A stretch of DNA of 42,980 bases from a virus (lineage: Duplodnaviria; Heunggongvirae; Uroviricota; Caudoviricetes). Each line of letters begins with the position of its first letter. Position 1 is the stretch's first letter. Location: the IMG/VR virus record IMGVR_UViG_2923355181_000001, one strand, 5' to 3'. The translations under genes and the position numbers were made by a program. Below are positions 584 to 17,935 of this stretch, piece by piece. The notes beneath the pieces are model-generated. The model did no database searches. It saw only the letters and a program-made list of their open reading frames with translations, and was not told where the DNA came from.

Positions 584-1630
584 TCATTTTCTCTGGCCAC
601 CAACTACGGGCACTACTTTAACTTTCCGGTCATATGCTGCTGTCTGTCGCGGGTTCTTATGCCCGGAAATTGCTTGCTTCTCTTCCAGGCTGCCTTCCAG
701 ATCAGAGATACCTTTTGCTTTCAGATCATGAAATGTGAAGTCTATTTGCAGATGAGGATATTTTTCCTGTGCTGCCGCTTTGACATCACGCCAACGAGAG
801 TTAAAACCATCACGGGTATACTTGCCACCGGTAGTTTGATGAATCACAAACAGGCTACTGATTCCCGTTTTTAATGGCAGAGAACGAGCCAGAGCTATCG
901 CTTTCTGCAGACGAGGCGACCAGGCTTTGATTTGCTTAACGCCGGTTTTTCCCTGACGAATGTAGATCCCGGAATCGAACAGCTGGTCTTTCTGCAATGA
1001 AAGTACATCACTCTGTCTGGCCACGCATAAGTAGGCAATCTCCATTGCTACGCGAACAACATCAGGAGACACTTCATAAACGGCCTGATATTCTTCATCC
1101 GTAATATAACGTTCGCGAGCTTTCTCTTTAAACTGTTTAACTCCCTGACAAGGATTCCTCTGAACATAACCTCGTTCATAACCCCAACGGAATACCCGGG
1201 ACATAAAGCTTTTTTCCCTGTTTGCCTGAGTTCGGCTTGATAAACCGCGTTGATCCATATAGCGCCGAATATGTTCAGGTTTGATTTTATCCGGGTCGAT
1301 CTTCCCGAAGACAGGCAGAACTTTTCCGGAATATTTTGTGTAGTCTTTCCGGGTTTCGACTGCCAAATCCATAAAATCAGGGGAGGTCATGAATTGTTCC
1401 GTGAGCGCCTGAAAAGTATTTCTTTCTTTTTCGTCACCGACCGCTTTTTCATATGCCAGCCATACGGCTGATCGTGGTGCATCCAATGCGCACAGGCGTA
1501 TCGCTTTGTTATCTTTATTCCTGAATTCGTAGGCCGCTTTGCCCTGGTAAACACGAGGCGGCATCCAGTTATCTGCTGGGTTCTTTCTCTTTCCGGCCAT
1601 TAAATATTGCTCCAAAATCAGGTTCATCAT
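584..1630 (-). CDS. int: phage tyrosine integrase (site-specific recombinase)
   Basis: 348-aa ORF; C-terminal HDLKAKGIS...GHKNPRQTAAYDRK resembles the His/Arg/Tyr catalytic region of lambda-type integrases; 3' end abuts the tRNA-Leu 3' side. Confidence 0.9.
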   Translation of the reverse strand: MMNLILEQYLMAGKRKNPADNWMPPRVYQGKAAYEFRNKDNKAIRLCALDAPRSAVWLAYEKAVGDEKERNTFQALTEQFMTSPDFMDLAVETRKDYTKYSGKVLPVFGKIDPDKIKPEHIRRYMDQRGLSSRTQANREKSFMSRVFRWGYERGYVQRNPCQGVKQFKEKARERYITDEEYQAVYEVSPDVVRVAMEIAYLCVARQSDVLSLQKDQLFDSGIYIRQGKTGVKQIKAWSPRLQKAIALARSLPLKTGISSLFVIHQTTGGKYTRDGFNSRWRDVKAAAQEKYPHLQIDFTFHDLKAKGISDLEGSLEEKQAISGHKNPRQTAAYDRKVKVVPVVGGQRK

Positions 1631-1832
1631 CTTTTCGCGTCGTCACCTCCTGTAAATTGCGAAATTTTATTGGGTTCATGAAATGGCCCCAGGTTGTTTT
1701 TGGGTGTCCGTCAGCCCTTTCCATGAAGAAAATTCCAGCCCGGCGAAGAGCCTCACATTGCTTTGATTTAAGTGGGCTTCCCGTCAGCTCGACCATTTCT
1801 TCTCTGGTGATTATGTCGTGATCGCTTTTCAT
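1569..1832 (-). CDS. xis: excisionase-like small DNA-binding protein
   Basis: 87-aa ORF directly upstream of and overlapping int start (classical xis-int arrangement); start preceded by ATGAGGAAAGACC motif; family assignment by position and size. Confidence 0.5.
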   Translation of the reverse strand: MKSDHDIITREEMVELTGSPLKSKQCEALRRAGIFFMERADGHPKTTWGHFMNPIKFRNLQEVTTRKDDEPDFGAIFNGRKEKEPSR

Positions 1833-1992
1833 GGTCTTTCCTCATTATGTAGCTTATTGCGTCATCTGCCTTCTGGCAGGCACGGGCAATATCAGACTCG
1901 GTCAAAGTCTGTTTCCTGACGCTGGCCGACAGTCGACCAATTTTGATATCAAATGCGGAGAGCAGAGTTGCTCCCGGTTGCCATCGCAGCAT
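1768..1992 (-). CDS. hypothetical small protein
   Basis: Track ORF begins at TTG 2022; internal ATG at 1992 is preceded by GGAGG; overlaps xis start by about 65 nt so may not be real. Confidence 0.3.
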   Translation of the reverse strand: MLRWQPGATLLSAFDIKIGRLSASVRKQTLTESDIARACQKADDAISYIMRKDHEKRSRHNHQRRNGRADGKPT

Positions 1993-2041: not shown

Positions 2042-2224
2042 TTATTTCTGATTAGGCGTAATCAGTTCTTGTGGGGTGAATGCCGATTTCTCCCGAGTGA
2101 CCTTAATGTTTTCTGGCAGGTGTAGCCCAAGTTCGCAGCGGCTCCGTGCTTCAATAATGCCATTGGTACCATCGGCAAGTACCAGGTGAACCGCGTCACC
2201 ACGCTTTAATGTGAGTTTAAGCAT
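2042..2224 (-). CDS. hypothetical small protein
   Basis: 60-aa ORF whose ATG overlaps the stop of the upstream gene (TAATG coupling). Confidence 0.4.
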   Translation of the reverse strand: MLKLTLKRGDAVHLVLADGTNGIIEARSRCELGLHLPENIKVTREKSAFTPQELITPNQK

Positions 2225-2793
2225 TAGCGTATCCTCAGTGACCGTTCGCCGCGTTCCAGATGTGCGCCTGGTACCGGGTTTAATAACTCGGCTGGTGGTG
2301 TTTCTCCACGCGCCAGTATTTCGGCGGCAACCGCCTCCGCAGATTCAATCACTTCTTTAATGGCTCGCTTGTTTGGTGTAATAACCGTTTCTACATCAAC
2401 AAGTGACACGCCCTCATACTCATCCGGGATCTTATCTTTGCTATCGATAATTACCCGGATAGCCCCCTGTGCATCAGTAAATGTGTTTTTTGCGGTTTTC
2501 AGTTTATCCAGGCCAGCAGCTTGCAGGCAGGTGAGCATATGCTTTCGAATTGCTTTTTCCTTGCCTTCAAAGGACGTCTTACGGGTTGCCAGGCGAGACA
2601 TTTCTTCAGCGCAGGTATTGGCATTGCCCTGTAAATTACGGCAGATGACCATCATGGCGTCCAGTTTGTCTCCCAGTTCTCCTTCCATGCCTTCAAGCGT
2701 GTCGGCGATCATCTCTGGCGTCAGTTCATCGGCGGTTTCTAACAGGTCAATCAGACTGGCATATTCTTTTGCAATAGCGATAGCAGTGCTCAT
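2224..2793 (-). CDS. hypothetical early-left protein (possibly Gp157-like)
   Basis: 189-aa ORF; ATGA overlap with stop of the annealase gene; no motif I can assign confidently. Confidence 0.55.
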   Translation of the reverse strand: MSTAIAIAKEYASLIDLLETADELTPEMIADTLEGMEGELGDKLDAMMVICRNLQGNANTCAEEMSRLATRKTSFEGKEKAIRKHMLTCLQAAGLDKLKTAKNTFTDAQGAIRVIIDSKDKIPDEYEGVSLVDVETVITPNKRAIKEVIESAEAVAAEILARGETPPAELLNPVPGAHLERGERSLRIR

Positions 2794-5006
2794 GCTGTTT
2801 GCTCCTGTGCAGCGGTAAGGGCGGCGAGGCGTTCAGTTTTAATGTCGGTGATACGGCGCAGACGTGATCCCAGATACGATGAATATTCTTTATCGCCTTT
2901 GGTTTCCGCTGCTTTCCTGTGTACATCCACTTCGCGGGCGATGAGGCCAAATACCTTGTTTACTTCGTTGGCGGTTACCGCGGCGGCCAGCGTATTGGCA
3001 ACGTTGATAAGCTTCTCATCCAGTTCCTTACGCAGACGGGTAGCATCTTCCGCATTCTCGCTGGCATTCTTGATATCAAACTCAGCTTTATTCCTCTGGC
3101 GGTATTCCGGATTGTCGTACAGGCCCATGAAAATATCGGCGCTGAATCCGAGAGGGGATAGCGCTTTCTTAACAGCATCCGTCCAGGATTTCTTCGGTGC
3201 TTCGCCGTCGCTTGTTGGTCCGTATTTAGTGTCGTAGATATAAGGTGTGCATCCGTAAGCCTCGGACTCACCGCGTACCCCATTCAATATGTACCAGACT
3301 CTCACTTTCATGGTGTGGTGCATTTCACATAGGTACCCGCCAACACCGTCTTGAATCAGATCCCATTCTATTTTTTCACCAACCTGTTTTTTGCGAACTA
3401 TTGGTGCGCCTTTATCAAAGCGCTCCTCCAGCACCTCTACCCCCCAGCCAATACCAAATGGCCCAAATTCGCGAGTCGCTTTCATCGCTATATAAGTGCC
3501 GTTGATGGATGTGCCGCCGCCATTCTGAGAGAAAGCACTGGTGAAGCGCTCATCGGTTTTGAATACGTTCTTCCACAATGCCAGGTTATCCGTGTCATCT
3601 GAGTCCTTTAACTCCGTTTCGATAGCTGAGATTGCATTCTGCCGCTTGTGCTCTTCGGCATGGATCCGCTCAACCAGCGCGTCAACGTTCTGCACCAGAT
3701 CCTTTACCTGCTCGCTAAGTTGTTCTTGTGGAGGAGTCTCTTCTGCCAGGGTAATAGCTGCAGGTTCCCTCTGTGATACGGCGTTATTTTCAGGTACGTC
3801 ATACACATGGCGAGGCGTGACAAACTGCTCACGCAACTGCTGCAAACTACGTTCTCCAGCATTTGCAGCTTCGCTTTTTTCGCCCTGATTTGAGGGTGTT
3901 TCTGACATCATCCCATCAATTGAGAATCGTCCGCCGCCGTGGTTGGTGACTTTTACATCATCCTTGGGTGCTGCTTCCTTTGGCTTCTCTTCAACAGCAT
4001 TTGCATCACGCTGCCCGTTAGCTTGCAGCCAGTTGTCGATGTGACTGCGCAGGGATTGTGGGAAGTGGTACGTGTCTTTTGCGGGGGCGCTCTGAATAAC
4101 ACCGAATACTGATGCGCGGTCATAGGCAAGGATCTGATCCGTTGTGCGCAAGGCCATTGACCAGCGTTTAAAATCTTCCCTGTCCTGACTGATTATTTCG
4201 TCTGCCGCTTTCAGGATGCTGGGGGTGATTTTTTCCGGGGCAACAGGTAACAGGGCGCAGGCAATTTCACGATCCAGAGTGGCGTGAGTCTGTTTGTAAG
4301 GACGTGCGGATGCTGTTTCTGGTTTTACCTCCGGCAGCATTTCATCTCGTTTACCGGGATTCTCTACCCATTTTTTTATAAATTTGGAGATAGTCCAACT
4401 GGTCGGGTTTTGTTCCTGGGTATCGCAACTTGCCAAAATTGCATGTACCAGATTATTCAATCCAGCAATATGCATGTACTCGATGGGCTTACACGCCACC
4501 ATGGCATCAAGAACGATGCGGTTAAACGCGTCAACCTCATCCTCACTGTCAGTATCACTGTTATCGAGCATCTCCAGGTATTCACGCGTCTGCACAAGCA
4601 ATTCACTGTCGACTTCGTTGGCGTCGTGGCTGAACAGCAGAACGGCGGCGAATCGTTCACGAGCCGGCAGTTTCATCAGGTCGCTAACCTGTGAGATATC
4701 TGCTGAACTGCAATCTGAATCAACAGGAGTGTTAACTACCCATTTTTCGCCATCAAAACTGTGTTCTGTGGCAAACGTCTCATCAAACTCACCGACGCCT
4801 GGGCGCGGTTGGCCCGGGGCATCTTCCCAGATTTTAGGTTTGAAATAGTTGTCGCCGTGGTCAGGGTAGGCTTCCCACAATTTGCCGATGATGATGTTCT
4901 CGGCAACTTTTTTGTTAGGGGCGGCGATGGCGATGGCCAGCGCCGGGATCGCGCCGTTTTTGAGCGCGCCTTTTTTCGCTTCTAACAAGCCGTTAAAAAT
5001 GGTCAT
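2790..5006 (-). CDS. large recombination protein with Rad52-like single-strand annealing domain plus about 470-aa N-terminal region of unknown function
   Basis: 738-aa uninterrupted ORF; residues about 470-620 (...SQNGGGTSINGTYIAMKATREFGPFGIGWGVEV...KKSWTDAVKKALSPLGFSADIF) resemble the Rad52 N-terminal core; start has ATGAGGAAAGACCAATG context. Confidence 0.65.
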   Translation of the reverse strand: MTIFNGLLEAKKGALKNGAIPALAIAIAAPNKKVAENIIIGKLWEAYPDHGDNYFKPKIWEDAPGQPRPGVGEFDETFATEHSFDGEKWVVNTPVDSDCSSADISQVSDLMKLPARERFAAVLLFSHDANEVDSELLVQTREYLEMLDNSDTDSEDEVDAFNRIVLDAMVACKPIEYMHIAGLNNLVHAILASCDTQEQNPTSWTISKFIKKWVENPGKRDEMLPEVKPETASARPYKQTHATLDREIACALLPVAPEKITPSILKAADEIISQDREDFKRWSMALRTTDQILAYDRASVFGVIQSAPAKDTYHFPQSLRSHIDNWLQANGQRDANAVEEKPKEAAPKDDVKVTNHGGGRFSIDGMMSETPSNQGEKSEAANAGERSLQQLREQFVTPRHVYDVPENNAVSQREPAAITLAEETPPQEQLSEQVKDLVQNVDALVERIHAEEHKRQNAISAIETELKDSDDTDNLALWKNVFKTDERFTSAFSQNGGGTSINGTYIAMKATREFGPFGIGWGVEVLEERFDKGAPIVRKKQVGEKIEWDLIQDGVGGYLCEMHHTMKVRVWYILNGVRGESEAYGCTPYIYDTKYGPTSDGEAPKKSWTDAVKKALSPLGFSADIFMGLYDNPEYRQRNKAEFDIKNASENAEDATRLRKELDEKLINVANTLAAAVTANEVNKVFGLIAREVDVHRKAAETKGDKEYSSYLGSRLRRITDIKTERLAALTAAQEQTA

Positions 5007-5036
5007 TGGTCTTTCCTCATTACAGGTCAGTGGTTT

Positions 5037-5357
5037 TTAGTAGGGGAGCTCATCGGTATCTGGCGTGTATTCGATGCAAAGTAACTGCTGGATTTTGTCA
5101 TCGATAGCAGCAATACGCTGTTGGGCGTCGGCGACTGTTTTCTGTTTTTGTTCACGCAGTTGCTCGACCTGTAAACCGATGATGTCGATTGGCTCGGGCT
5201 GGTTAACGGTAATTTCAATTTCGCGGCTTTCCAGAAGGATGTACCTGTCTGGAAAATTTTTTGACATATCAACAGTCGCAACAAGCAGCTTTTCGTGGCT
5301 GAAAGTTGAAGTTGCATAATGAATAAAGAGTGTTACTGGGATGGTGCGCGCTTCCAT
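5037..5357 (-). CDS. hypothetical early-left protein
   Basis: 106-aa ORF, AGGAG 5 nt upstream of ATG; first gene after the long leader. Confidence 0.55.
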   Translation of the reverse strand: MEARTIPVTLFIHYATSTFSHEKLLVATVDMSKNFPDRYILLESREIEITVNQPEPIDIIGLQVEQLREQKQKTVADAQQRIAAIDDKIQQLLCIEYTPDTDELPY

Positions 5358-6222
5358 AGCGACTCCTTGGTAATGTATACTCAGAGCCGATCAGCGAATA
5401 TTGATCAGCTTCCATAGCGTCAGTGTCGTTGGTCTTTCCTCATCACAAGTTTGGTCACTTGTGATAAATCCGAATGGTTTGGTCGCCGTTCGGGGTAACT
5501 GGCCCGCCTTGTGCGGGTCTTTTGCTATCTAAAGGGTGCCGGTTACGTTTCCGGCGTCGTTATGTTTCCATTACGACCGTACAGGGCTGGTCAGGCCCGG
5601 GCTGGTCTTTCCTGTTTTGAGCTGGTCAGGCTCATGGTCAACGCTGGTCAGGCGTGGTACTTCCTCCGGTCTTTCCCTGGTGTCACGCTGCGGGTTTGGC
5701 CTCTCCTGTTGGGGACTCAGGCACAGCGATAAAACCTGGCTGTGTGAAAAAATGGCCCATCGTGCGGACTGGGCAAAGACTAAACACAGCAAATTGATGA
5801 TGGGCGCCCGGAATCGAACCGGGTAACGGGCAGGGAGTTCCCGTTAAACACCTGTTCACCACAACCGGGAGCGCACTCCGCCATTTCAAAATTTAACGAC
5901 AAAGCTCAAAGTTGAGTCGATGAAGTGCGCTCTCGTGTTGTAGCCAGGACTCTTCCCTGGTGGTCACACCGTATCGCCTTGATGGTGAATCAATCGCTCA
6001 TACCTGGCTGTGGCTTGCACATTCCGGCTACCTGCTATGGAGACAACGCGTTAAGGCTCCGCTTCCATCCAGACCGCTTCGACACATGTGCCATATGCCG
6101 GTGAAGTCTTTCCCTCTGTCACCGTGTTGGCGCCGACGCGCAAAATTTGGTGCCGTCTTTCCGGCTGTCAGAACGTGTTTCTGAACAACTGCCGCTGGGT
6201 AAGCGTTGTTGATGAAAGTGAC

Positions 6223-6280
6223 TTTACAATTTGTATTTGTAATGGTCAATGTGTTTTTAAAAAATAATTTGTAGTGAGGG
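6223..6280. promoter_or_regulatory. candidate left operator/promoter (OL/pL-like)
   Basis: Repeated AATTTGTA cores (TACAATTTGTA, TTTGTAATGG, AATTTGTAGTG) just beyond the repressor 3' end; same core as in the repressor/cro intergenic region. Confidence 0.4.
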
Positions 6281-6367
6281 GCAAAAAAATATTCACTGTG
6301 TAAAGGTGTTTTTGTGTTAGGGGAAAGTTGCATGCCAGCAGCGGCTGGCCTGGAAATTTGAACTGAA

Positions 6368-6781
6368 CTATTTTGTCTGGTTTTTGGCTTCAAGTAGTTC
6401 TTTTAGCAGTAGATCGAAGTGCTCTCTTTTTTCTTTTAGCTCATTGATTAATTTATTTTTTTCGCTCTCAGGCAGTCCTCTGAATAGTTGCAGTAGAGCC
6501 TGTTCTTGCGGGGTTAGTTCTTGATTGTAATTACCCGGGTGTAGTGTGGATTCATCCAAATATTCCCCTTCATTCATGAAGAAAAAATGAACAGGGTATC
6601 CGGTCACTTTTGCTAGCTTGTCTAATTTATCTTTTCTTGGAGTTACCCCATTACACCATGCCTGAACTGATTGAGCCGTAACCCCAATATGGCGAGCTAA
6701 CTCAGATTGAGACCAGCCTAAGTCTTTTAGAATCCGTTGTAGTCGGCTAGCAAAAGCCATGTTTTTCGTTTTTGTGTTCAT
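6368..6781 (-). CDS. prophage repressor, HTH (XRE-type) without peptidase S24 domain
   Basis: HTH-like segment FASRLQRILKDLGWSQSELARHIGVTAQSVQAWCNG; divergent from a Cro-like gene; track ORF begins at TTG 6796, ATG 6781 or 6760 more likely (possibly leaderless). Confidence 0.7.
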   Translation of the reverse strand: MNTKTKNMAFASRLQRILKDLGWSQSELARHIGVTAQSVQAWCNGVTPRKDKLDKLAKVTGYPVHFFFMNEGEYLDESTLHPGNYNQELTPQEQALLQLFRGLPESEKNKLINELKEKREHFDLLLKELLEAKNQTK

Positions 6782-6798
6782 ACCGTAAGGATACAAGG

Positions 6799-6860
6799 TT
6801 TAATTGTAGGGAGCATTGCAAATATAATTTGTAATTACAGTTATTGTTTGTAATGATGAC
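6799..6860. promoter_or_regulatory. candidate right operator/promoter region (OR-like)
   Basis: Three spaced sites with TTGTA(A/G) core, including perfect palindrome TGTAATTACA (6830-6839); lies between divergent repressor and cro-like genes. Confidence 0.5.
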
Positions 6861-6879
6861 GCGGACACAAGGAGTCCAT

Positions 6880-7110
6880 ATGGATAAACAACTGCAAGAC
6901 AAAATTCTTTCCGTAATGAGTCAATCCGAGTTAGGGCGGCGATTAGGGAAAAAACCACAAACGGTAAGCCTCTGGTTCAAAGGACGGGTTCCCGGTGAAG
7001 AGGTTTTGCGCACATCTGAAGCTCTTGAATGGCGCGTGACCCCTCATGATCTTAGACCGGATCTTTACCCAAACCCAGATGACAGCTTGCCTAAAACGGA
7101 AGCAGCTTAA
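6880..7110 (+). CDS. Cro/YdaS-like small DNA-binding protein
   Basis: 76 aa from ATG 6880 with AAGGAG 6 nt upstream; HTH-like LGRRLGKKPQTVSLWFKGR; divergent from repressor. Confidence 0.6.
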   Translation: MDKQLQDKILSVMSQSELGRRLGKKPQTVSLWFKGRVPGEEVLRTSEALEWRVTPHDLRPDLYPNPDDSLPKTEAA

Positions 7111-7168
7111 CTGTTGGTGAGCCCCAAATCTGATTAAGCGTAATCAATTTTTAGCGACAGGAGACGCT

Positions 7169-7645
7169 ATGGAAAACCAAGAGGAATTACAAAAAGAGAT
7201 TTTGACCTGGGCGGCAAGGGCAGGGCAGGAACTCGTCACGATTGAAATCTGCCGGGCCTGGTTCAGTCAGGGACGCAATGATGAGTTGAGACTACATGAA
7301 TTTGAGGACGCGGACGGCAACGTGGACTGGAGAGCCATCAACAACAATCGGCAGAAAATCTTTCGCTGGTTACGTGGCGAGACAACGGCGGCGCGCCGAA
7401 AAACTCAGGTGCTGGCCAGTGTGATGAAAGCCGTGCTACCCGCAGAACGGCGGGCACGTCTGGAGTCGCCGGGCGATCCCGTTTTGCTGGCAACGCTGGC
7501 GGCAAAAGAAGGGGTGGAAGCGATTAACGCTGTACATCTCCACTTCGCGCCAGAGTTAACTATTCAGGAAATTGACGAAGCAATAGCGGCGCTGGTAGCG
7601 ACGCGAGGAGCAGTGATACGCACTGCGCAAGACCACCATGCATGA
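7169..7645 (+). CDS. YdaT-like / CII-position regulatory protein
   Basis: 158-aa ORF immediately after the cro-like gene, AGGAG RBS; family assignment is by position and size. Confidence 0.4.
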   Translation: MENQEELQKEILTWAARAGQELVTIEICRAWFSQGRNDELRLHEFEDADGNVDWRAINNNRQKIFRWLRGETTAARRKTQVLASVMKAVLPAERRARLESPGDPVLLATLAAKEGVEAINAVHLHFAPELTIQEIDEAIAALVATRGAVIRTAQDHHA

Positions 7646-7684
7646 GCGCCTGACCAGCGTTTAACTTATACCGAGGAAAGACCG

Positions 7685-7909
7685 ATGTTAAGACATATTG
7701 ACCGCATTACCTGGCGTAACGGCTGGCACCTGAATGGACGCCCGGCACATGTTGCAGAGATCCGCCCCATATTCGATGGCCGCGTCGCAGCTGCACGTTC
7801 TGTATGGGAAAAGTACGAAGAAGAAAAAGCGAAACTGCGTGAGCAAAATCTCTCTGGCGCTGCCTATGAGGCTGGCTGTCGCGTTCTCTCAGAGGCTTTG
7901 GGCATATGA
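7685..7909 (+). CDS. hypothetical protein
   Basis: 74-aa ORF preceded by conserved cassette GCCTGACCAGCGT...CCGAGGAAAGACCG-ATG. Confidence 0.45.
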   Translation: MLRHIDRITWRNGWHLNGRPAHVAEIRPIFDGRVAAARSVWEKYEEEKAKLREQNLSGAAYEAGCRVLSEALGI

Positions 7910-8661
7910 ACATCCTCCCGTTACTTGATAGACCCATAGCCTTCCAGAGAAGTTTTATCCGTCTTGAAATGGGCGTGACTGCCGCATTGTTTCTGTCGCA
8001 GTTGACGTACTGGACAAACAGAACAACTGACGACGGCTGGGTATATAAAACCCAGGATGAGTGGGAAGAGGAAACAGGGCTTTCACGATACGAGCAGGAG
8101 GGCGCGCGCAAAAAACTACGTGGTCTCGGCGTCTTGCTGGAACGTAAACAGGGCTTGCCTGCCAGGCTGTACTACAAAATCGATAATGATGTGTTGTGCC
8201 AGCTACTTACGTCCGCATACAAGGATGCGGAAAAACCACATACAGGTGAGGGGAAAACCACCAGGCCTGTACGTGGAAAACCAACAAACATTCTTACAGA
8301 GAATACTACAGAGATTATTACTGATGGTGAATCGGCTGACGCCGACACCCAACAACCTGCCGACCAGAGAATAAATTATCAGGTGATACTCGATACCTAT
8401 CACGAGATTTTGCCAGAGATGCCACCAGTGAAAATCCTCACTGACGGCAGAAAAAAACACCTTCGCACTTTCTGGAAAAAATTCAATTTCAATGAGTCCC
8501 GTTGGCGGGCCTATCTGGAATTTATCGGTGGCAATTGTCGCTGGATGCTGGAGGACAGGCCAAATGGCAGGGGAGGATTCTGGCGGCGTAAAAATCTTGA
8601 TTATCTGATTACCGAACGCTGCTATGTTTCGGTCAAGGAAGAACGCGCAAATGATAAATAA
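7906..8661 (+). CDS. phage replication initiation / replisome-organiser protein
   Basis: 251-aa ORF directly upstream of and overlapping a DnaB-type helicase gene; ATGA coupling with upstream ORF. Confidence 0.55.
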   Translation: MNILPLLDRPIAFQRSFIRLEMGVTAALFLSQLTYWTNRTTDDGWVYKTQDEWEEETGLSRYEQEGARKKLRGLGVLLERKQGLPARLYYKIDNDVLCQLLTSAYKDAEKPHTGEGKTTRPVRGKPTNILTENTTEIITDGESADADTQQPADQRINYQVILDTYHEILPEMPPVKILTDGRKKHLRTFWKKFNFNESRWRAYLEFIGGNCRWMLEDRPNGRGGFWRRKNLDYLITERCYVSVKEERANDK

Positions 8662-10066
8662 CGCGATTGCACTGTACAGCGTTGACGCAGAACAGGCTGT
8701 TCTGGGCTGTCTGATGCTGAATACCGACCACGACAGAACCAATGCGGTATTTGCGTTACTGAAACCGGAAACGTTTTATATCAATGCGCATCAGGTTATC
8801 TACCGGGAGATCAAAGGATTATTTCAAGCTGATAAACCAACTGACCTGATAACACTGACCGAACTGATGGAATCGAAGGGGCTGTATGAGCGCGTGGGGG
8901 GATTCGCATACCTGGCTGAAATGAGTAAGGCGGCGATTCCGGCCTCAATGGTCAACTACGCGAAAATTGTACGTGAAAAAGCCATTCTTCGTTATGCCGT
9001 GGAAAAGTTGAATTCTTGTCTGGAGATTATGATCCAGCCTGCAGATATGACTGCTACTGACAGGATCACCGCCGTTCAGCAAGTGATTGGGCAGGTGGCC
9101 GAACATTCCCGTACCGGGCATAAGGGCGGTTTGCGTCCGGCAAGTGAAGTCGTCGATGACTGGATAGATGACCTTGAGCGCCGTTTCAATGATCCAGCAC
9201 ATGCAGCCGGACTAACGCTCGGAATCGAAAGCCTTGATCGCTTAATGGCACCAAAGCAGGCGTTAAGAGGTTCATTGGTCGTTATTGGTGCCCGGCCAAA
9301 AATGGGCAAGACAGCCGCGTTTAATAAAATTGCGGTGCATTTTGCTCTGAATCATCGTTTGCCGACGCTGGTATTTAGCCTGGAAATGACTGACAGAAGT
9401 CTCATTGAACGCATGGTTGCGCAGGAAGCAAAGGTCAATTCGGAGATTTTTTATCTTGGCCCTAACGATGAATCTGAATTGAGTCTCGCAATAGCAAAGG
9501 CGGGGGAGATTGCCGAATCCAACATGATGATTGACAGCACGGCAGGTGTAACCCTTGCGCATATTGTCGCTGAATGTCGAAAAGTTAAACGGATGCGTGG
9601 CTCGGTTGGCCTGGTGGCAATTGACTATTTGACGCTGATGAAGACCGAATCGGCAGAGCGTAGGGATATTGCGTATGGCGATATCACAACCGGTTTGAAG
9701 AACCTGGCAAAAGAGCTGGATTGTGTTGTGGTCCTGCTGACGCAACTCAACCGAAAGCTTGAAGAACGTGCCGATAAGCGGCCTAACCCGAGCGACAGTA
9801 AAGATACCGGGCAGATCGAACAAGATTGCGATGTCTGGATTGGCCTCTATCGTGATGCTGTTTATAACGAAAATGCCGACCCAAATCTCATGGAAATGTT
9901 GCTACGTCTGAACCGCGAAGGACCATCGGGAACAGCCTATGCCCTGATGAAAAATGGCTCAGTTATTGATATCAGCGATGAGGAGGTTTATCGCCTTACC
10001 AACGACCGCTCAGAAAAAAATAAACGTTATTCCCGTAGCGATAATTCTCGCACAAATGAATTTTAA
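8651..10066 (+). CDS. replicative DNA helicase, DnaB family
   Basis: Walker A GARPKMGKTA; N-terminal DAEQAVLGCLMLN typical of DnaB; ATG 8651 overlaps upstream stop (track ORF starts 8624). Confidence 0.88.
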   Translation: MINNAIALYSVDAEQAVLGCLMLNTDHDRTNAVFALLKPETFYINAHQVIYREIKGLFQADKPTDLITLTELMESKGLYERVGGFAYLAEMSKAAIPASMVNYAKIVREKAILRYAVEKLNSCLEIMIQPADMTATDRITAVQQVIGQVAEHSRTGHKGGLRPASEVVDDWIDDLERRFNDPAHAAGLTLGIESLDRLMAPKQALRGSLVVIGARPKMGKTAAFNKIAVHFALNHRLPTLVFSLEMTDRSLIERMVAQEAKVNSEIFYLGPNDESELSLAIAKAGEIAESNMMIDSTAGVTLAHIVAECRKVKRMRGSVGLVAIDYLTLMKTESAERRDIAYGDITTGLKNLAKELDCVVVLLTQLNRKLEERADKRPNPSDSKDTGQIEQDCDVWIGLYRDAVYNENADPNLMEMLLRLNREGPSGTAYALMKNGSVIDISDEEVYRLTNDRSEKNKRYSRSDNSRTNEF

Positions 10067-10104
10067 CCACGCCTGACCAGCGTGAAATAACCGAGGAAAG
10101 ACCA

Positions 10105-10515
10105 ATGACCACCACTCCAGGCAAATTAGAGTACCCGTCGGACAAAGGACACATAGACGACGGTAAAAACTATCTCGACGTCATTTTGTGGAATATGAAC
10201 GTCGGGCCACGTGCGCGCACTCGCGCGGTTTTTGTGCCAAGACCTAAAGCAGGCAATTTTTCAACCCCTGCTAAGCCTGCCCGTCAGGCATCCGTAGCCG
10301 CAGCGCCAGCAGTGAAACGTAAGGGCAAAACGCACACCGGGATCGCGATTCGCAGAAATGGTGAGCGGCAAGTGAAACTCCACGAAACAGCGACAACCTG
10401 GTGTGCCTCACCGCATGAAACTTACGACAAGATAACCGGGCAGCGCATTGGCGCGCCTGGTCGCTGCCGCCTGCTGCTGAGTTCCATCACTCCGATAGCA
10501 AAGAAAGGGGCGTGA
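10105..10515 (+). CDS. hypothetical protein
   Basis: 136-aa ORF preceded by second copy of the CACGCCTGACCAGCGT...CCGAGGAAAGACCA-ATG cassette. Confidence 0.5.
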   Translation: MTTTPGKLEYPSDKGHIDDGKNYLDVILWNMNVGPRARTRAVFVPRPKAGNFSTPAKPARQASVAAAPAVKRKGKTHTGIAIRRNGERQVKLHETATTWCASPHETYDKITGQRIGAPGRCRLLLSSITPIAKKGA

Positions 10516-10516
10516 T

Positions 10517-10753
10517 ATGGCCGGGCAATCAGATTACCTGCCGCCCGGCTTACCACACAACCGCGCCAAATGGCCCCAGGAATACCAGCTTAAAGAGCAC
10601 TACGACATGCGAGCGGCGGCGCTGATCCGCCAACTCTTTGAGAAACGTATTCCGAGGGGAAGCGTGATTGAGCAAATCGGAATGACGCCAGATACGTACC
10701 GGGAATTTTTCAGAGAGCGTCTGAACTACTGGAGAGGGGTGATGGAACAATGA
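10517..10753 (+). CDS. hypothetical protein
   Basis: 78-aa ORF, start 2 nt after upstream stop. Confidence 0.45.
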   Translation: MAGQSDYLPPGLPHNRAKWPQEYQLKEHYDMRAAALIRQLFEKRIPRGSVIEQIGMTPDTYREFFRERLNYWRGVMEQ

Positions 10754-11061
10754 AATACAAACGGTGGGTGCGTGCGGAAGTCGTAATCATCAAACAATGT
10801 GCGGGCAGCATGACAGTTGAACGTATAGGGCAGCTTATTGGCAGAACCGGTGCAGCGGTACGCACAAAAGCGCGCGAGCTGAAAATCTGTATGTATCTGC
10901 GGGGTAATTATCACCAGTCAGTGAAATACCTCCAGGAAGATATCGAGCTGGCAAGGGAATTACATCAGTCGGGTATTAATCGCCAGGATATCGCAGAAAA
11001 ACTCGAAATGCCGATCGGAGCGGTGAATCAGTTTGTTTATTTTGAGCGGAGAATTTCATGA
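10750..11061 (+). CDS. hypothetical protein, possible DNA-binding
   Basis: 103-aa ORF with ATGA overlap to upstream gene. Confidence 0.45.
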   Translation: MKYKRWVRAEVVIIKQCAGSMTVERIGQLIGRTGAAVRTKARELKICMYLRGNYHQSVKYLQEDIELARELHQSGINRQDIAEKLEMPIGAVNQFVYFERRIS

Positions 11062-11282
11062 AAGAACTTTTTCTTGCATTTGTGCCCCGGTTTATTAATG
11101 ACCAGATCGCACTGACTGATAATGGTGAACAATATGAAATTGCCTGCAGCATGGTGGATGTGAATCCTGGCGAACGGTATGACGCGATGTGTGACCTGAA
11201 AATATTTACCTGGCTGGGTTGGGCTATTCCGTGTGGAGAACCAACCAATATTCGTCCGTTTGAGAGCAGGGAGGCTGTATGA
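11058..11282 (+). CDS. hypothetical protein
   Basis: 74-aa ORF with ATGA overlap. Confidence 0.4.
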   Translation: MKELFLAFVPRFINDQIALTDNGEQYEIACSMVDVNPGERYDAMCDLKIFTWLGWAIPCGEPTNIRPFESREAV

Positions 11283-11691: not shown

Positions 11692-11963
11692 ATTGACTTA
11701 GAAAAAGTCCGGGGCTATAGTTTCCGCGCAGCCGCAAAATCGGTTGCCGGGATTGGCGTCCCGGATATCTAAGTGACGCATAGCCGCGTTAGCGGTTTTT
11801 TTATGTGTTAGGCACGGCCACATTCGCATTATGGTGGGCTGTGTGGGGGCTTCTGTGGAAGCGCCGGGTTCACTTAGCCGGTTACGCCAACCCTGCACAG
11901 CTCACCACCAGATGATTGGCGTCGCTGGTGGTGATGAAAAAAACACTAAGTGAGGCCACTGCG

Positions 11964-12752
11964 ATGACAGTCCAAATATCTGCGGAATCCCTTTCTCCGC
12001 TACATCATAACCAACTTCCCGTCATCACTACTGAATTGCTTGCCAGTTTGTATGGCACGGAAGTAAATGGTATCCAGCAAAACTTCAAGCGCAACATCGC
12101 CAGATTTGTCGTAGGAAAGCATTTTTTTAAGCTGGAAGGTAATGAATTACGCGACTTCAAAAACAGACTGACAGATAGTCAGTCAGTTGCTAAACATACC
12201 CGATCCCTCATTCTCTGGACAGAACGCGGCGCAGCTCGCCATGCCAAAATGCTGGAAACAGAACAGGCCTGGGAAGTTTTCGAAAAGCTGGAAGATTGTT
12301 ATTTTAGCCAGCGTCCAGAGAGGCGGAGTACAACTACCGATGACCGTACTCCCTTGCGTGATGCCGTTAATATACTGGTCGGCAAGAAAGGCATGATGTA
12401 TCCCGATGCCTACACCATGATTCATCAACGCTTCGCCGTCTCTCACATAGAACAACTGTCACAGACGCAAATGTTAGAGGCGATTGAATACATCCACTGC
12501 CTGCTACTCGATGAAAATCACCCAACCATTCCAGATTTTTCTTTTATCACCACTATCAAAAATGGAAAAGTGACCGGGATGCGCCATGTTGCCAAAGGCG
12601 AACATCTGATGACCTTTGACGCTTTCAAAGAGATCGCTGAGCGGGCAGGGTATCTGGTGATCCACAGCGACAATCTGCGAAGTATGACACTGGATAAATT
12701 GATGGTAATGGGGAAAAAGTCGGCTATATCCGTTGCTAATTCAGCATTTTGA
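11964..12752 (+). CDS. phage antirepressor-like protein (ORF6N/KilA-type)
   Basis: Track ORF starts TTG 11916; ATG 11964 preceded by GAGG; N-terminal region resembles antirepressor N-domains. Confidence 0.55.
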   Translation: MTVQISAESLSPLHHNQLPVITTELLASLYGTEVNGIQQNFKRNIARFVVGKHFFKLEGNELRDFKNRLTDSQSVAKHTRSLILWTERGAARHAKMLETEQAWEVFEKLEDCYFSQRPERRSTTTDDRTPLRDAVNILVGKKGMMYPDAYTMIHQRFAVSHIEQLSQTQMLEAIEYIHCLLLDENHPTIPDFSFITTIKNGKVTGMRHVAKGEHLMTFDAFKEIAERAGYLVIHSDNLRSMTLDKLMVMGKKSAISVANSAF

Positions 12753-17701: not shown

Positions 17702-17935
17702 TCACTTCTGCAGTATCTCGCCAATACCTGCCAGATTCTCGTCCATCTTGTCACCGTTTTCGATAAGGATGGAGTTGAGCCGATTCAGTTGCATAGCAAT
17801 TTCAAGTTTGATTAAGGTATCCACCGATACACCAGTTTCTTTTGCTAACTTAGTAAGAGCCGCAGCTCGATTGGCTAAATTAAAATCATCGAACTCATAA
17901 CGACTTCTGCACGGCTGGTTGCCTAACGTACCCAT
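17702..17935 (-). CDS. hypothetical small protein (possible DNA-binding)
   Basis: 77-aa ORF with RBS ATGAGGAA; own terminator. Confidence 0.45.
   Translation of the reverse strand: MGTLGNQPCRSRYEFDDFNLANRAAALTKLAKETGVSVDTLIKLEIAMQLNRLNSILIENGDKMDENLAGIGEILQK

Follow-up and report, generated by a model that had tools for sequence, protein, structure and literature searches.

Recurrent start-codon cassettes in enterobacterial prophages as candidate target sites of a predicted phage-encoded small RNA

The window analysed here is the whole 42,980 nt stretch of a Caudoviricetes virus record (IMG/VR IMGVR_UViG_2923355181_000001), in which four gene starts share a conserved sequence element (Table 1). 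The stop codon of a YdaT-like gene (TGA, 7643-7645) lies directly 5' of the hairpin of cassette 1, and the 74-aa gene behind this cassette is the first of an overlapping block with an O-like gene and DnaB. The DnaB stop (TAA, 10064-10066) precedes the hairpin of cassette 2, which fronts the post-helicase gene at the head of the block 10105-11282. On the minus strand the element stands before the first gene of the recE/Gp157/60-aa block and before a DUF4224 excisionase-like gene that overlaps the integrase gene. The sequences in front of 7685 and 10105, and ATGAGGAAAGACC ahead of the minus-strand starts at 1832 and 5006, are present as the first-pass annotation had described them; the gene at 5006, named there as an annealase, is instead a RecE-like exonuclease (PHROG 2489).

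Table 1 Coordinates of the cassettes, the leftward leader elements and the predicted small RNA gene within the window
Feature	Position	Strand	Description
xis box	1830-1845	-	SD box AUGAGGAAAGACC and AUG of the DUF4224 excisionase-like gene
recE box	5004-5020	-	SD box AUGAGGAAAGACC, A and AUG of the RecE-like exonuclease gene (738 aa)
Predicted sRNA gene	5376-5527	+	Strand opposite the leftward operon
Predicted sRNA -10	5376-5381	+	TATACT, predicted start ~5388
Predicted sRNA seed	5430-5441	+	UGGUCUUUCCUC, complement of the 'orphan' cassette, single-stranded
Predicted sRNA hairpin 1	5442-5465	+	Hexaloop UUGGUC
Predicted sRNA hairpin 2	5470-5493	+	Hexaloop UUGGUC
Predicted sRNA intrinsic terminator	5501-5525	+	With U tail
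Target-like array in leftward leader	5584-5676	-	Boxes and hairpins; equivalent arrays in other genera
Leader hairpin GGGC/GCCC	5584-5598	-	Loop CUGACCA
Leader hairpin GAGC/GCUC	5619-5633	-	Loop CUGACCA
Leader hairpin ACGC/GCGU	5641-5655	-	Loop CUGACCA
Leader boxes	5604-5612, 5668-5676	-	GGAAAGACC
Degenerate leader box	5656-5667	-	GGAGGAAGUACC
One-mismatch boxes	6105-6162	-	GGAAAGACU (6105-6113) and GGAAAGACG (6154-6162), early leftward leader, membership uncertain
pL-like promoter	6221-6249	-	TTGACC-17-TAAAGT; would drive leftward leader and operon; context only
Repressor gene	6368-6760		Reference for placing the pL-like promoter
Cassette 1	7646-7687	+	SD box GAGGAAAGACC (7673-7683), G, ATG at 7685 (74-aa gene)
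Cassette 1 hairpin	7646-7660	+	GCGC[CUGACCA]GCGU, 12 nt on to the SD box
Cassette 2	10068-10107	+	SD box GAGGAAAGACC (10093-10103), A, ATG at 10105 (post-helicase gene)
Cassette 2 hairpin	10068-10084	+	CACGC[CUGACCA]GCGUG, 8 nt on to the SD box

The SD box occurs in the window far above chance. GAGGAAAGACC is found in five exact copies and the shorter GGAAAGACC in seven; allowing at most one mismatch there are six matches to GAGGAAAGACC against 0.54 expected, a count reached in 0/100 shuffles. CTGACCAG has six matches against 0.67 expected. All seven exact copies of GGAAAGACC lie on the early-transcription strand, that is minus to the left of the repressor and plus to its right. The upstream box of the cassette is a hairpin of the form NNGC[CUGACCA]GCNN, in which the loop is fixed and the stem of 4-7 bp covaries, with G·U pairs used on the mRNA strand (for example AGCGC...GCGUU). 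Several other readings of these repeats were considered and set aside. The CCTGACCAGC repeats (spacings of 22 and 35 bp) could have been replication-origin iterons, a view against which their covarying palindromic flanks argue, since these point to a strand that folds and not to a protein site in repeated copies. A CsrA-type GGA sponge for the GGA-rich leader was dropped as the conserved 9-mer extends far past the GGA motif. Nothing ties the 7-nt loop (CU-GAC-CA) to tRNA enzymes as a mimic of an anticodon arm, and its shape was retained only as the idea of a U-turn. We know of no convincing complement to the box in 16S rRNA beyond the anti-SD.

A cluster of further elements in the leftward leader, with three more hairpins and two more boxes, had been overlooked in the first pass. 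We found no plausible ORF in 5358-6215 of the minus strand, nor any arginine-rich or otherwise conserved ORF in the leader. The 106-aa product of the first annotated gene after pL is not rich in arginine, and PHROG 2479 is its only family assignment.

Four gene families have these cassettes at their starts: the excisionase, the RecE-like exonuclease, the 74-aa gene at the head of the replication genes, and the post-helicase gene. The same four are preceded by them in Escherichia, Serratia, Enterobacter, Raoultella and Citrobacter prophages as well as in Pectobacterium phage ZF40. The box is present at every homologous start inspected (excisionase 51/51, RecE-like 87/87, 74-aa gene 105/105, post-helicase gene 33/33), against ordinary and variable SDs at neighbouring genes of the same genomes. 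The hairpin is absent from the RecE-like start in this window and present at 29 of 74 homologous sites elsewhere. Loci from Serratia, Enterobacter, Raoultella and Citrobacter, fetched through the 74-aa protein (47-62% identity) so as to avoid ascertainment bias, each carry 7-9 exact copies of GGAAAGACC together with hairpins. The system is present in approximately 9% of complete E. coli genomes (477/5426).

One copy had been recorded as an orphan with ACG in place of ATG, and it is indeed found at 5431-5443 on the minus strand, followed by A-ACG. We read this copy differently, as the regulator's own gene lying on the opposite strand, where an unannotated RNA of ~135 nt (~5388-5527, plus strand) is predicted. 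A type I toxin-antitoxin interpretation was rejected, as the short ORFs after the orphan copy are not conserved and the codon in this window is ACG. Homologs of 5340-5545 (plus strand) were recovered from 89 loci, 68 of them distinct, and in all of these, including ZF40-type genomes, a -10 hexamer (TATACT, TATAAT or TAAAAT, often with an upstream TG) occupies the same place and a terminator stem with a U-run is found on the plus strand only. Read from the sequence, the -35 region is poor; judged by its -10 and terminator, both correctly oriented, the locus appears to form a transcription unit of its own. A covarying hairpin immediately follows the -10, and with a start 7 nt further on part of it would not be included in the sRNA, so either the true start lies further upstream or this hairpin belongs to the opposite leftward transcript.

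Secondary structure is conserved at this locus with covariation on the proposed strand. The window RNA has an MFE of -57.9 kcal/mol (z = -6.4), with CUUUCCUC unpaired in the MFE structure. As the raw MAFFT alignment misaligned the terminators of two subfamilies and left the RNAalifold consensus partly wrong, a hand-specified structure and a covariance model were used; the model matched 76 of 92 sources with exactly one match per locus. On the alignment fitted to this model, from which the covariation counts were taken, 92.5% of cells are paired, double changes occur in 21 of 24 pairs, and the covariation score is 0.530 compared with 0.189 for shuffles (0/500 reach 0.530) and at most 0.074 for slid controls. 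Both hairpins covary around hexaloops of the form NUGGUN, UGGU being invariant, and the stems of the second loop hairpin contain 106 G·U against 4 A·C on the plus strand, which identifies the folded molecule as the plus-strand RNA. None of the Rfam 15 covariance models, C4 (RF01695) included, gave a gathering-level match at 5376-5527, where only sub-threshold matches at chance level were seen on the plus strand (Trp_leader at 19 bits and isrK at 14 bits), and no description of the small RNA (sRNA) and cassette system was found in Rfam 15 or in the literature searched by sequence string and topic. A separate C4/isrK module is located at 11715-11912.

The predicted sRNA has a seed that can pair with both the SD box and the start codon, and its loops are complementary to GACCA of the cassette loop, with their invariant UGGU facing ACCA. 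Duplex energies were calculated with the seed alone, full-length RNA duplex folding having given meaningless long-range pairings, and reached -32.8 kcal/mol at the 5006 start, -31.3 at 10105, -26.9 at 7685 and -26.4 at 1832, compared with -20.5 for the next best of 41 genes and a median of about -14.5 kcal/mol. A shortened form of the motif claimed earlier before the gene at 17935 proved to be an ordinary SD, and its seed duplex of -18.0 lies within the background of the other genes.

This complementarity to the SD and AUG of the targets is kept by compensatory change. A-type genomes combine the seed GGUCUUUCC with GGAAAGACC boxes, while in C-type genomes, comprising ZF40 and at least eight IMG/VR contigs, the seed GGUCUUGCC is paired with the box class GGCAAGACC and the gene-start cassettes read GAGGCAAGACC, so that the A-to-C switch is common to the sRNA seed and to unlinked boxes in both arms. 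A search for further specificity classes returned these two only; G or T at box position 3 gave chance single matches barring one C-type wobble variant, and a search for A/C at the seed position gave no match. Single-site deviants at true target starts (C9>U at three sites, C8>U, A7>G and, in a C-type genome, C3>U) are all G·U-compatible transitions, an argument that rests on about six events and is weaker if transitions dominate mutation. The exception to seed and box matching is the lineage of L149, L417, L434 and L456, in which the cassettes on either side of the replication genes have GAGGCAAAGACC and the additional A would bulge against the GGUCUUGCC seed of the same genome; a search for an sRNA with a seed matching this box found none.

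Taken together we consider it probable, at roughly 0.6, that the cassettes are bipartite target sites of a phage-encoded sRNA that would act on them in trans. The first-pass annotation had offered a common translational control site as one of two interpretations, and it is this one that is strengthened, since a conserved structured RNA gene opposite the orphan copy has a complement that the cassettes match, and seed and cassettes switch together. The sRNA would be transcribed from the -10-type promoter facing the leftward early operon and end at the intrinsic terminator. Its proposed target mRNAs have the SD box directly 5' of the AUG, most of them with the CUGACCA-loop hairpin 7-20 nt upstream. 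The loop begins with a YUNR sequence (CUGA) and is complementary to the NUGGUN hexaloops, and CUGA may form a U-turn that presents GACCA for fast contact with a UUGGUC loop, a kissing interaction with a predicted contact of only 5-6 bp. The seed would then pair over 14-19 bp of the SD and start codon and block ribosome entry, preventing translation of excision, recombination and replication genes. Since each of the four targets is the first of a run of overlapping or abutting cistrons (xis-int, recE-gp157-60aa, 74aa-O-dnaB and 10105-11282), control at four sites could be enough to shut down most early lytic functions. The leftward leader is fully complementary to the sRNA, and its extra boxes and hairpins may serve as capture or decoy sites.

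A more speculative extension, which we regard as possible but doubtful, is that the sRNA provides an RNA-based second layer of immunity whose specificity classes are the A-type GGUCUUUCC/GGAAAGACC and the C-type GGUCUUGCC/GGCAAGACC. The sRNA of a resident prophage would silence excision, recombination and replication genes, both in its own leaky transcripts and in a superinfecting phage of the same class. Escape might occur by a class switch or through altered boxes, as in the replication module with the additional A, and on induction the decoy boxes and hairpins of the leader would sponge the sRNA and thereby release the early genes.

The same cassettes could be operators of an RNA-binding protein, such as a RegA-like translational repressor or an N/boxB-like factor, with the leader array titrating the protein and the opposite-strand RNA an unrelated cis-antisense. 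A stem that covaries beneath an unchanging loop is classically the mark of a protein-bound hairpin, the array of three hairpins and 2-3 boxes resembles a sponge, a co-evolving protein that reads the cassette equally predicts concerted A and C classes, and the hairpin GCGCCUGACCAGCGC resembles the boxB of P22, GCGCUGACAAAGCGC. We nevertheless judge this unlikely. No candidate protein was found, the leader having no conserved ORF and the early proteins no matches to RNA-binding families, and the single-site deviants are predicted by base pairing and not by protein recognition. A protein also gives no account of a conserved, terminator-ended structured RNA with complementary seed and loops opposite one of the copies. 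The nut/boxB version in particular was rejected as an N-like ORF is absent, the cassettes sit at RBSs far from promoters rather than at nut positions, and boxA-like sequences (YGCTCTTWA, at most one mismatch) are at chance level in the window (34 matches against 34.9 expected) with none near a hairpin.

It is less probable again that the sRNA is real but confined to cis action on the leftward leader, in the manner of OOP and sar, and that the boxes of the other genes are no more than a strong RBS context which this phage lineage has favoured and spread by descent or copying. The perfect complementarity of sRNA and leader over the whole length fits such a role, GAGG placed 8-10 nt before the AUG makes a good SD by itself, and the box is limited to four gene families, so that much of its distribution among genomes follows from common descent. 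However, an SD needs GAGG only, whereas the next seven bases are exact in 46 copies from six genomes, and the box has stayed exact while the flanking proteins diverged to 47-62% identity and neighbouring genes use varied SDs. The switch from A to C shared by the seed and unlinked boxes also speaks against it, and repeats of 11 nt would be short for homogenization by gene conversion. The other interpretation offered in the first pass, conserved boundary linkers whose short stretches of homology would let lambdoid phages recombine, we hold to be very improbable. Mosaic junctions do fall at the cassettes: among locus pairs with one flank at least 95% identical, a rough sample given that pairs are not phylogenetically independent, the other flank was below 80% in 40/120 (33%) at cassette 1 and 15/87 (17%) at cassette 2 against none inside genes, and import of the replication module as a unit would fit the private additional A in both cassettes of the L149 lineage. 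However, the cassette-less boundary between the 74-aa gene and the O-like gene is as mosaic (18/68, 26%), so that junctions are not concentrated at the element above other gene boundaries and the module-exchange reading has no specific support. Homology patches need no covarying stem, invariant loop, fixed distance to the AUG or fixed orientation, would leave the concerted A-to-C switch unexplained, and no match to a structured RNA on the opposite strand is expected of them.

If trans-acting sRNA control is confirmed, one small RNA would use dedicated bipartite sites to control where translation of several early blocks begins in the two divergent operons, which is more than the one-target antisense RNAs of lambda, P22 and P1 do. 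As about 9% of all complete E. coli genomes and prophages of several further Enterobacterales carry the system, its effects could extend to the stability and induction of prophages and to superinfection in clinical lineages. Swaps of seed and box between the A and C classes offer a testable prediction.

Phage antisense 'immunity' RNAs, of which P4 CI is one, are the closest parallels. Others are sar of P22, c4 of P1/P7 and OOP of lambda (PMC12197685). In common with all four, the predicted sRNA is a short phage RNA that would pair with the RBS region of early or regulatory mRNAs and is encoded beside or opposite a target in the immunity and early region. However, sar and OOP each act on one overlapping mRNA and c4 on one operon, whereas at least four trans sites in both divergent early operons and a leader array are proposed here. 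c4 is processed from a precursor, in contrast to the promoter and terminator predicted for the sRNA, which has no match to the Rfam C4 model. T4 RegA, a protein with loose sequence recognition, represses many early mRNAs at their translation initiation regions, and likewise one phage factor would shut off many early mRNAs by occupying initiation regions; the factor proposed here is instead an RNA and its sites are nearly invariant 11-mers. The nut sites of lambda and P22 share with the cassettes a small invariant-loop hairpin in early transcripts of lambdoid phages and, for P22 boxB, a similar 15-nt sequence, but their loop is a GNRA-like pentaloop compared with 7 nt in the cassettes, which are placed at RBSs 0.8-3.9 kb from promoters with one array downstream of a terminator.

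The passage on YUNR in PMC4485353, citing Franch et al. 1999, presents it as the U-turn recognition loop of antisense RNA systems. CopA/CopT and hok/sok (PMC4485353) resemble the proposed mechanism in using a YUNR-first recognition loop, in proceeding from loop-loop contact to single-stranded pairing and in having a hairpin part and a linear part in both target and regulator. These systems are strictly cis-encoded and fully complementary, whereas here short loop and box motifs recur at several unrelated genes and kissing is suggested by 5-6 nt of complementarity only. In Cluster K mycobacteriophages the SAS, with a consensus of 13 bp, is a conserved RBS-containing sequence of unknown function directly before many start codons, and about half of the sites have an upstream inverted repeat (ESAS) at a variable spacer with 17-bp arms conserved in sequence (PMC3203893). 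Judged from that description the likeness is architectural only, with one orientation and conservation per gene family (PMC3203893). Sequence and host are unrelated, no cognate RNA has been proposed for the SAS, and the stems here are of 4-7 bp and covary; if confirmed, the present system would suggest a specific hypothesis for comparable 'start-associated sequences' that lack an explanation in other phage groups.

The early region of this lambdoid E. coli prophage carries a repeated gene-start cassette made up of an upstream box, a Shine-Dalgarno (SD) box and the start codon, and the cassette sequences described in the first-pass annotation were all found where it placed them. There are five exact copies of GAGGAAAGACC in the window and six matches when up to one mismatch is allowed, compared with 0.54 expected and with none of 100 shuffles reaching six. 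The core GGAAAGACC occurs in seven exact copies, all running in the direction of early transcription, on the minus strand left of the repressor gene and on the plus strand right of it. CTGACCAG is found six times where 0.67 would be expected, and five of these copies fall in the early region. In addition a cluster in the leftward leader that had been missed contains three further upstream and two further downstream boxes. By their coordinates, the boxed genes are each the first in a series of overlapping or abutting cistrons.

The prophage lies beside a tRNA-Gly/Cys/Leu cluster downstream of pgsA. The 6 kb compared (window 5000-11000) is 100% identical to NZ_AP018784.2 and was found in 477 of 5426 complete E. 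coli genomes. The prophage also has a P1 c4-type antisense module ahead of an ORF6N antirepressor-like gene; the Rfam models c4-a1b1, isrK and C4 all match it above gathering, and it makes up a second RNA-based control system, independent of the cassette.

Features of the prophage; gene order is the RefSeq annotation converted to window coordinates
Feature	Coordinates	Strand	Source or remark
int	584-1600	-	RefSeq
DUF4224 excisionase	1569-1832	-	RefSeq
60-aa gene	2042-2224	-	RefSeq
Gp157	2224-2793	-	RefSeq
RecE-like exonuclease, 738 aa	2790-5006	-	RefSeq; PHROG 2489
106-aa gene	5037-5357	-	RefSeq
Gene-free stretch, ~1 kb	between 106-aa gene and cI-like repressor gene		RefSeq
Hairpin after sRNA -10	5376-5420	+/-	
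GATC (Dam) sites	5389-5392, 5403-5406	+	
Leader box cluster	5584-5676	-	
RprA-like module	5745-5855	-	
tRNA-like fragment	~5800-5825	-	
pL-like promoter	6249-6221	-	
cI-like repressor	6368-6760	-	RefSeq
cro-like	6880-7110	+	RefSeq
YdaT/CII-like	7169-7645	+	RefSeq
Stop codon of preceding gene and hairpin, first cassette	7643-7660	+	
74-aa gene	7685-7909	+	RefSeq
O-like	7906-8661	+	RefSeq
DnaB	8651-10066	+	RefSeq
Stop codon of preceding gene and hairpin, second cassette	10064-10084	+	
136-aa gene (post-helicase)	10105-10515	+	RefSeq
Three small, tightly packed genes	after 10515, to 11282		RefSeq
c4-type module	11715-11912	+	
ORF6N antirepressor-like gene	11964-12752		

One box copy had been listed as an orphan with ACG in place of ATG. 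Its sequence is present, and we reinterpret it as a probable small RNA (sRNA) gene read on the opposite strand (+), on the basis of a conserved -10, seed, hairpins and terminator. Homologues of 5340-5545(+) came from 89 loci, 68 of them distinct. Their plus strand alignment starts with the 106-aa gene's ATG and SD in reverse complement, followed by a -10 hexamer at a fixed position (TATACT, TATAAT or TAAAAT, frequently as TGnTATAAT), a 5' part that varies, UGGUCUUUCCUC without variation, two hairpins in succession, each with a covarying stem and the hexaloop UUGGUC (or GUGGUU), and a 3' end of GGUAA, a GC-rich stem and 4-7 U, predicted to be a functional terminator on the plus strand only. The window RNA 5390-5527 folds at -57.9 kcal/mol compared with -35.3 ± 3.5 for shuffles (z = -6.4), with CUUUCCUC unpaired in the MFE structure. 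A covariance model of the seed, two hairpins and terminator matched exactly once per locus in 76 of 92 sources; 92.5% of cells in its alignment are paired, 21 of 24 pairs change on both sides, and the covariation score is 0.530, against 0.189 for shuffles (0 of 500 reach 0.530) and no more than 0.074 for slid partners. These values come from an alignment fitted to the model, which favours the structure. Counted independently of that model, the second loop hairpin has 106 G·U and 4 A·C pairs on the plus strand, and as G·U pairs would mismatch on the other strand the plus strand RNA is the folded molecule. Rfam 15 has no family for the sRNA, whose predicted gene is well supported by these comparisons.

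Several further features surround this gene. A hairpin with a covarying stem (e.g. CAGAGCC...GGCUCUG) directly follows the -10; it is interrupted in the window by a 17-nt insertion, a start site 7 nt past the -10 would fall within it, and it could belong to a transcript of either strand. Two GATC sites lie right at the predicted sRNA start, and 51 of the 56 distinct sRNA genes have a GATC no more than 24 nt downstream of the -10, so expression may be methylation-sensitive. In Pectobacterium phage ZF40 (NC_019522.1) the annotated gp08 (4919-5407(-), with its GTG start at 5407) covers both the predicted sRNA gene and the terminator. As the 106-aa gene's homologue begins there at an ATG near 5212, gp08 is probably over-extended.

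The seed is exactly complementary to the SD box, and the complementarity continues across the start codon. Calculated duplexes reach -32.8 kcal/mol at the RecE-like start, -31.3 at the 10105 gene, -26.9 at the 7685 gene and -26.4 at the excisionase, compared with a best value of -20.5 among the other 37 annotated starts and a median of about -14.5 over all 41. The gene at 17935, previously taken to carry a shortened cassette, gives -18.0 and is a non-member. Both sRNA hexaloops contain an invariant UGGU (usually UUGGUC) complementary to GACCA(G/A) of the cassette loop, which starts with CUGA, an example of the YUNR motif that forms a U-turn recognition loop and speeds antisense RNA pairing (PMC4485353).

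That cassette loop belongs to a hairpin formed by the upstream box. In the five copies the 5' arms ACGC-, GAGC-, GGGC-, GCGC- and CACGC- are each followed by CUGACCA and a matching 3' arm, the loop and two closing pairs being invariant while the outer stem varies by compensatory substitutions. A set of 121 loci from viral contigs contains 489 CTGACCA sites; 268 of them are flanked by stems of 4 bp or more, which come in many variants (e.g. GCGC/GCGC, ACGC/GCGU, GGGC/GCCC, GAGC/GCUC, CGGCGC/GCGCCG). The varying stem, the fixed loop and the G·U pairs seen on the mRNA strand point to a single strand folded in the mRNA sense. The hairpins of the cassettes before the genes at 7685 and 10105 begin 0-1 nt past the stop codon of the preceding gene; a terminating ribosome would cover and melt them and access to the docking loop may therefore be tied to upstream translation.

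The cassettes recur in other genomes. At least 120 viral contig stretches match CCTGACCAGC-N6-20-GGAAAGACC, usually with two to three sites per locus in the same divergent layout among the matches listed. In order to avoid ascertainment bias, loci were also fetched through homologues of the 74-aa protein, which is 100% identical in Escherichia whittamii and 47-62% identical in Serratia grimesii, S. aquatilis, Enterobacter sichuanensis, Raoultella lignicola and Citrobacter murliniae. All five of these distant genomes keep the hairpin and box before the 74-aa and post-helicase genes, and each has 7-9 exact GGAAAGACC copies with one-mismatch variants almost absent. With starts assigned to families through the protein that follows, by its homology, the box stands ahead of 51/51 excisionase, 87/87 RecE-like, 105/105 74-aa and 33/33 post-helicase starts; the neighbouring 106-aa, Gp157, O-like and 60-aa genes have ordinary, variable SDs. 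A complete system with the window's (A-type) box is also present in OM816834.1 ('Stenotrophomonas phage vB_SmeS_BUCT708'), whose early region is syntenic with this prophage family and whose sRNA region is 73% identical to the window; the deposited host looks odd.

Seed and box also change together between genomes. ZF40, found via the 74-aa protein, has the same gene layout with GAGGCAAGACC before gp03, gp05, gp13, gp16 and gp18 and GAGGCAAGAUC before gp07, and the RNA predicted on its opposite strand carries the seed GGUCUUGCC and comes with a TATAAT -10 and a terminator. At least eight other viral contigs fall into the same C-type class, and all sRNA-bearing A-type loci examined have GGUCUUUCC in the sRNA and GGAAAGACC at the gene-start boxes. 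A single leader copy departs from its class: a GGAAAGACC embedded in a stem, in a C-type locus and away from any RBS. Single-site departures at true target starts are rare and all keep pairing through G·U (C9>U at three sites, C8>U at ZF40 gp07, A7>G, and C3>U in a C-type genome); only 6 of 27 possible single substitutions would do so, a statistic weakened by transition bias. The exception is a C-type lineage of four IMG/VR contigs (L149, L417, L434, L456) in which the two cassettes around the replication genes read GAGGCAAAGACC, whose extra A would bulge against the same genome's seed; the remaining boxes and the seed are standard, and a search for a sRNA seed matching GAGGCAAAGACC found none. 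These cassettes could represent tuning, escape or import of a replication module from an unsampled class.

Two readings of the cassette had been proposed in the first-pass annotation, a common translational control site and a boundary mediating module exchange. Comparative sequence evidence supports the former, with the sRNA as a concrete candidate effector. For the latter we compared 200-nt flanks pairwise in 58 distinct loci, took the pairs with at least 95% identity in one flank and scored as discordant those whose other flank was below 80% identical, a rough measure because locus pairs are non-independent. Discordance was seen in 40/120 pairs at the first cassette and 15/87 at the second compared with 18/68 at the cassette-less boundary of the 74-aa and O-like genes and 0 at six intragenic controls, which places junctions at gene boundaries generally and gives cassettes no specific support as exchange sites. 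Reading the hairpin as nut/boxB fails on boxA, N gene and position.

Under translational control, the sRNA would dock on the U-turn hairpin by loop-loop contact and then pair across the SD and AUG of the first cistron in each of four early blocks, blocking initiation. If translational coupling ties the overlapping cistrons downstream to the first one, most early lytic functions would be blocked as well. Expression of the sRNA, its action in trans and the kissing step are what we infer. It could be expressed in the lysogen, silencing leaky transcripts, or late in infection for early-gene shutoff. The sRNA is fully antisense to the leftward leader, and the extra leader boxes and hairpins, conserved in other genera, could be capture or decoy sites.

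The leader also holds an RprA-like sRNA module oriented with the leftward promoter (37.4 bits against Rfam RprA, gathering 70, E = 0.011). Its 3' part, CUGUGUUUAGUCUUUGCCC plus hairpin and U6, is close to identical with the 3' end of RprA. Among the fetched loci this motif, whose terminator stems covary, turns up 69 times, and ZF40 has a related copy. With this terminator between pL and the leftward genes, the latter need read-through or another promoter. Just upstream of the module is GGTTCGATTCCGGGCGCCCA, a fragment resembling a tRNA T-arm and acceptor; it is found in 12 of the 69 motif-bearing loci. It received no ARAGORN call and only 19 bits from the tRNA-Sec model, and may be a relic of an att site or a signal for processing.

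By sequence or topic, no description of the sRNA or boxes was found in Rfam or the literature searched, an absence that is no proof of novelty. Cluster K mycobacteriophage SAS/ESAS sequences, of unknown function, are a formal look-alike of the cassettes (PMC3203893) and T4 RegA is a protein counterpart in function. The docking architecture, with kissing inferred here, is similar to the U-turn kissing systems of plasmids and toxin-antitoxin loci (PMC4485353). The nearest kinds are the RBS-occluding phage antisense RNAs P22 sar, P1 c4 and lambda OOP; the RNAs tabulated with them (PMC12197685) all lack what is proposed for this sRNA, several dedicated trans sites spread over the two early operons.
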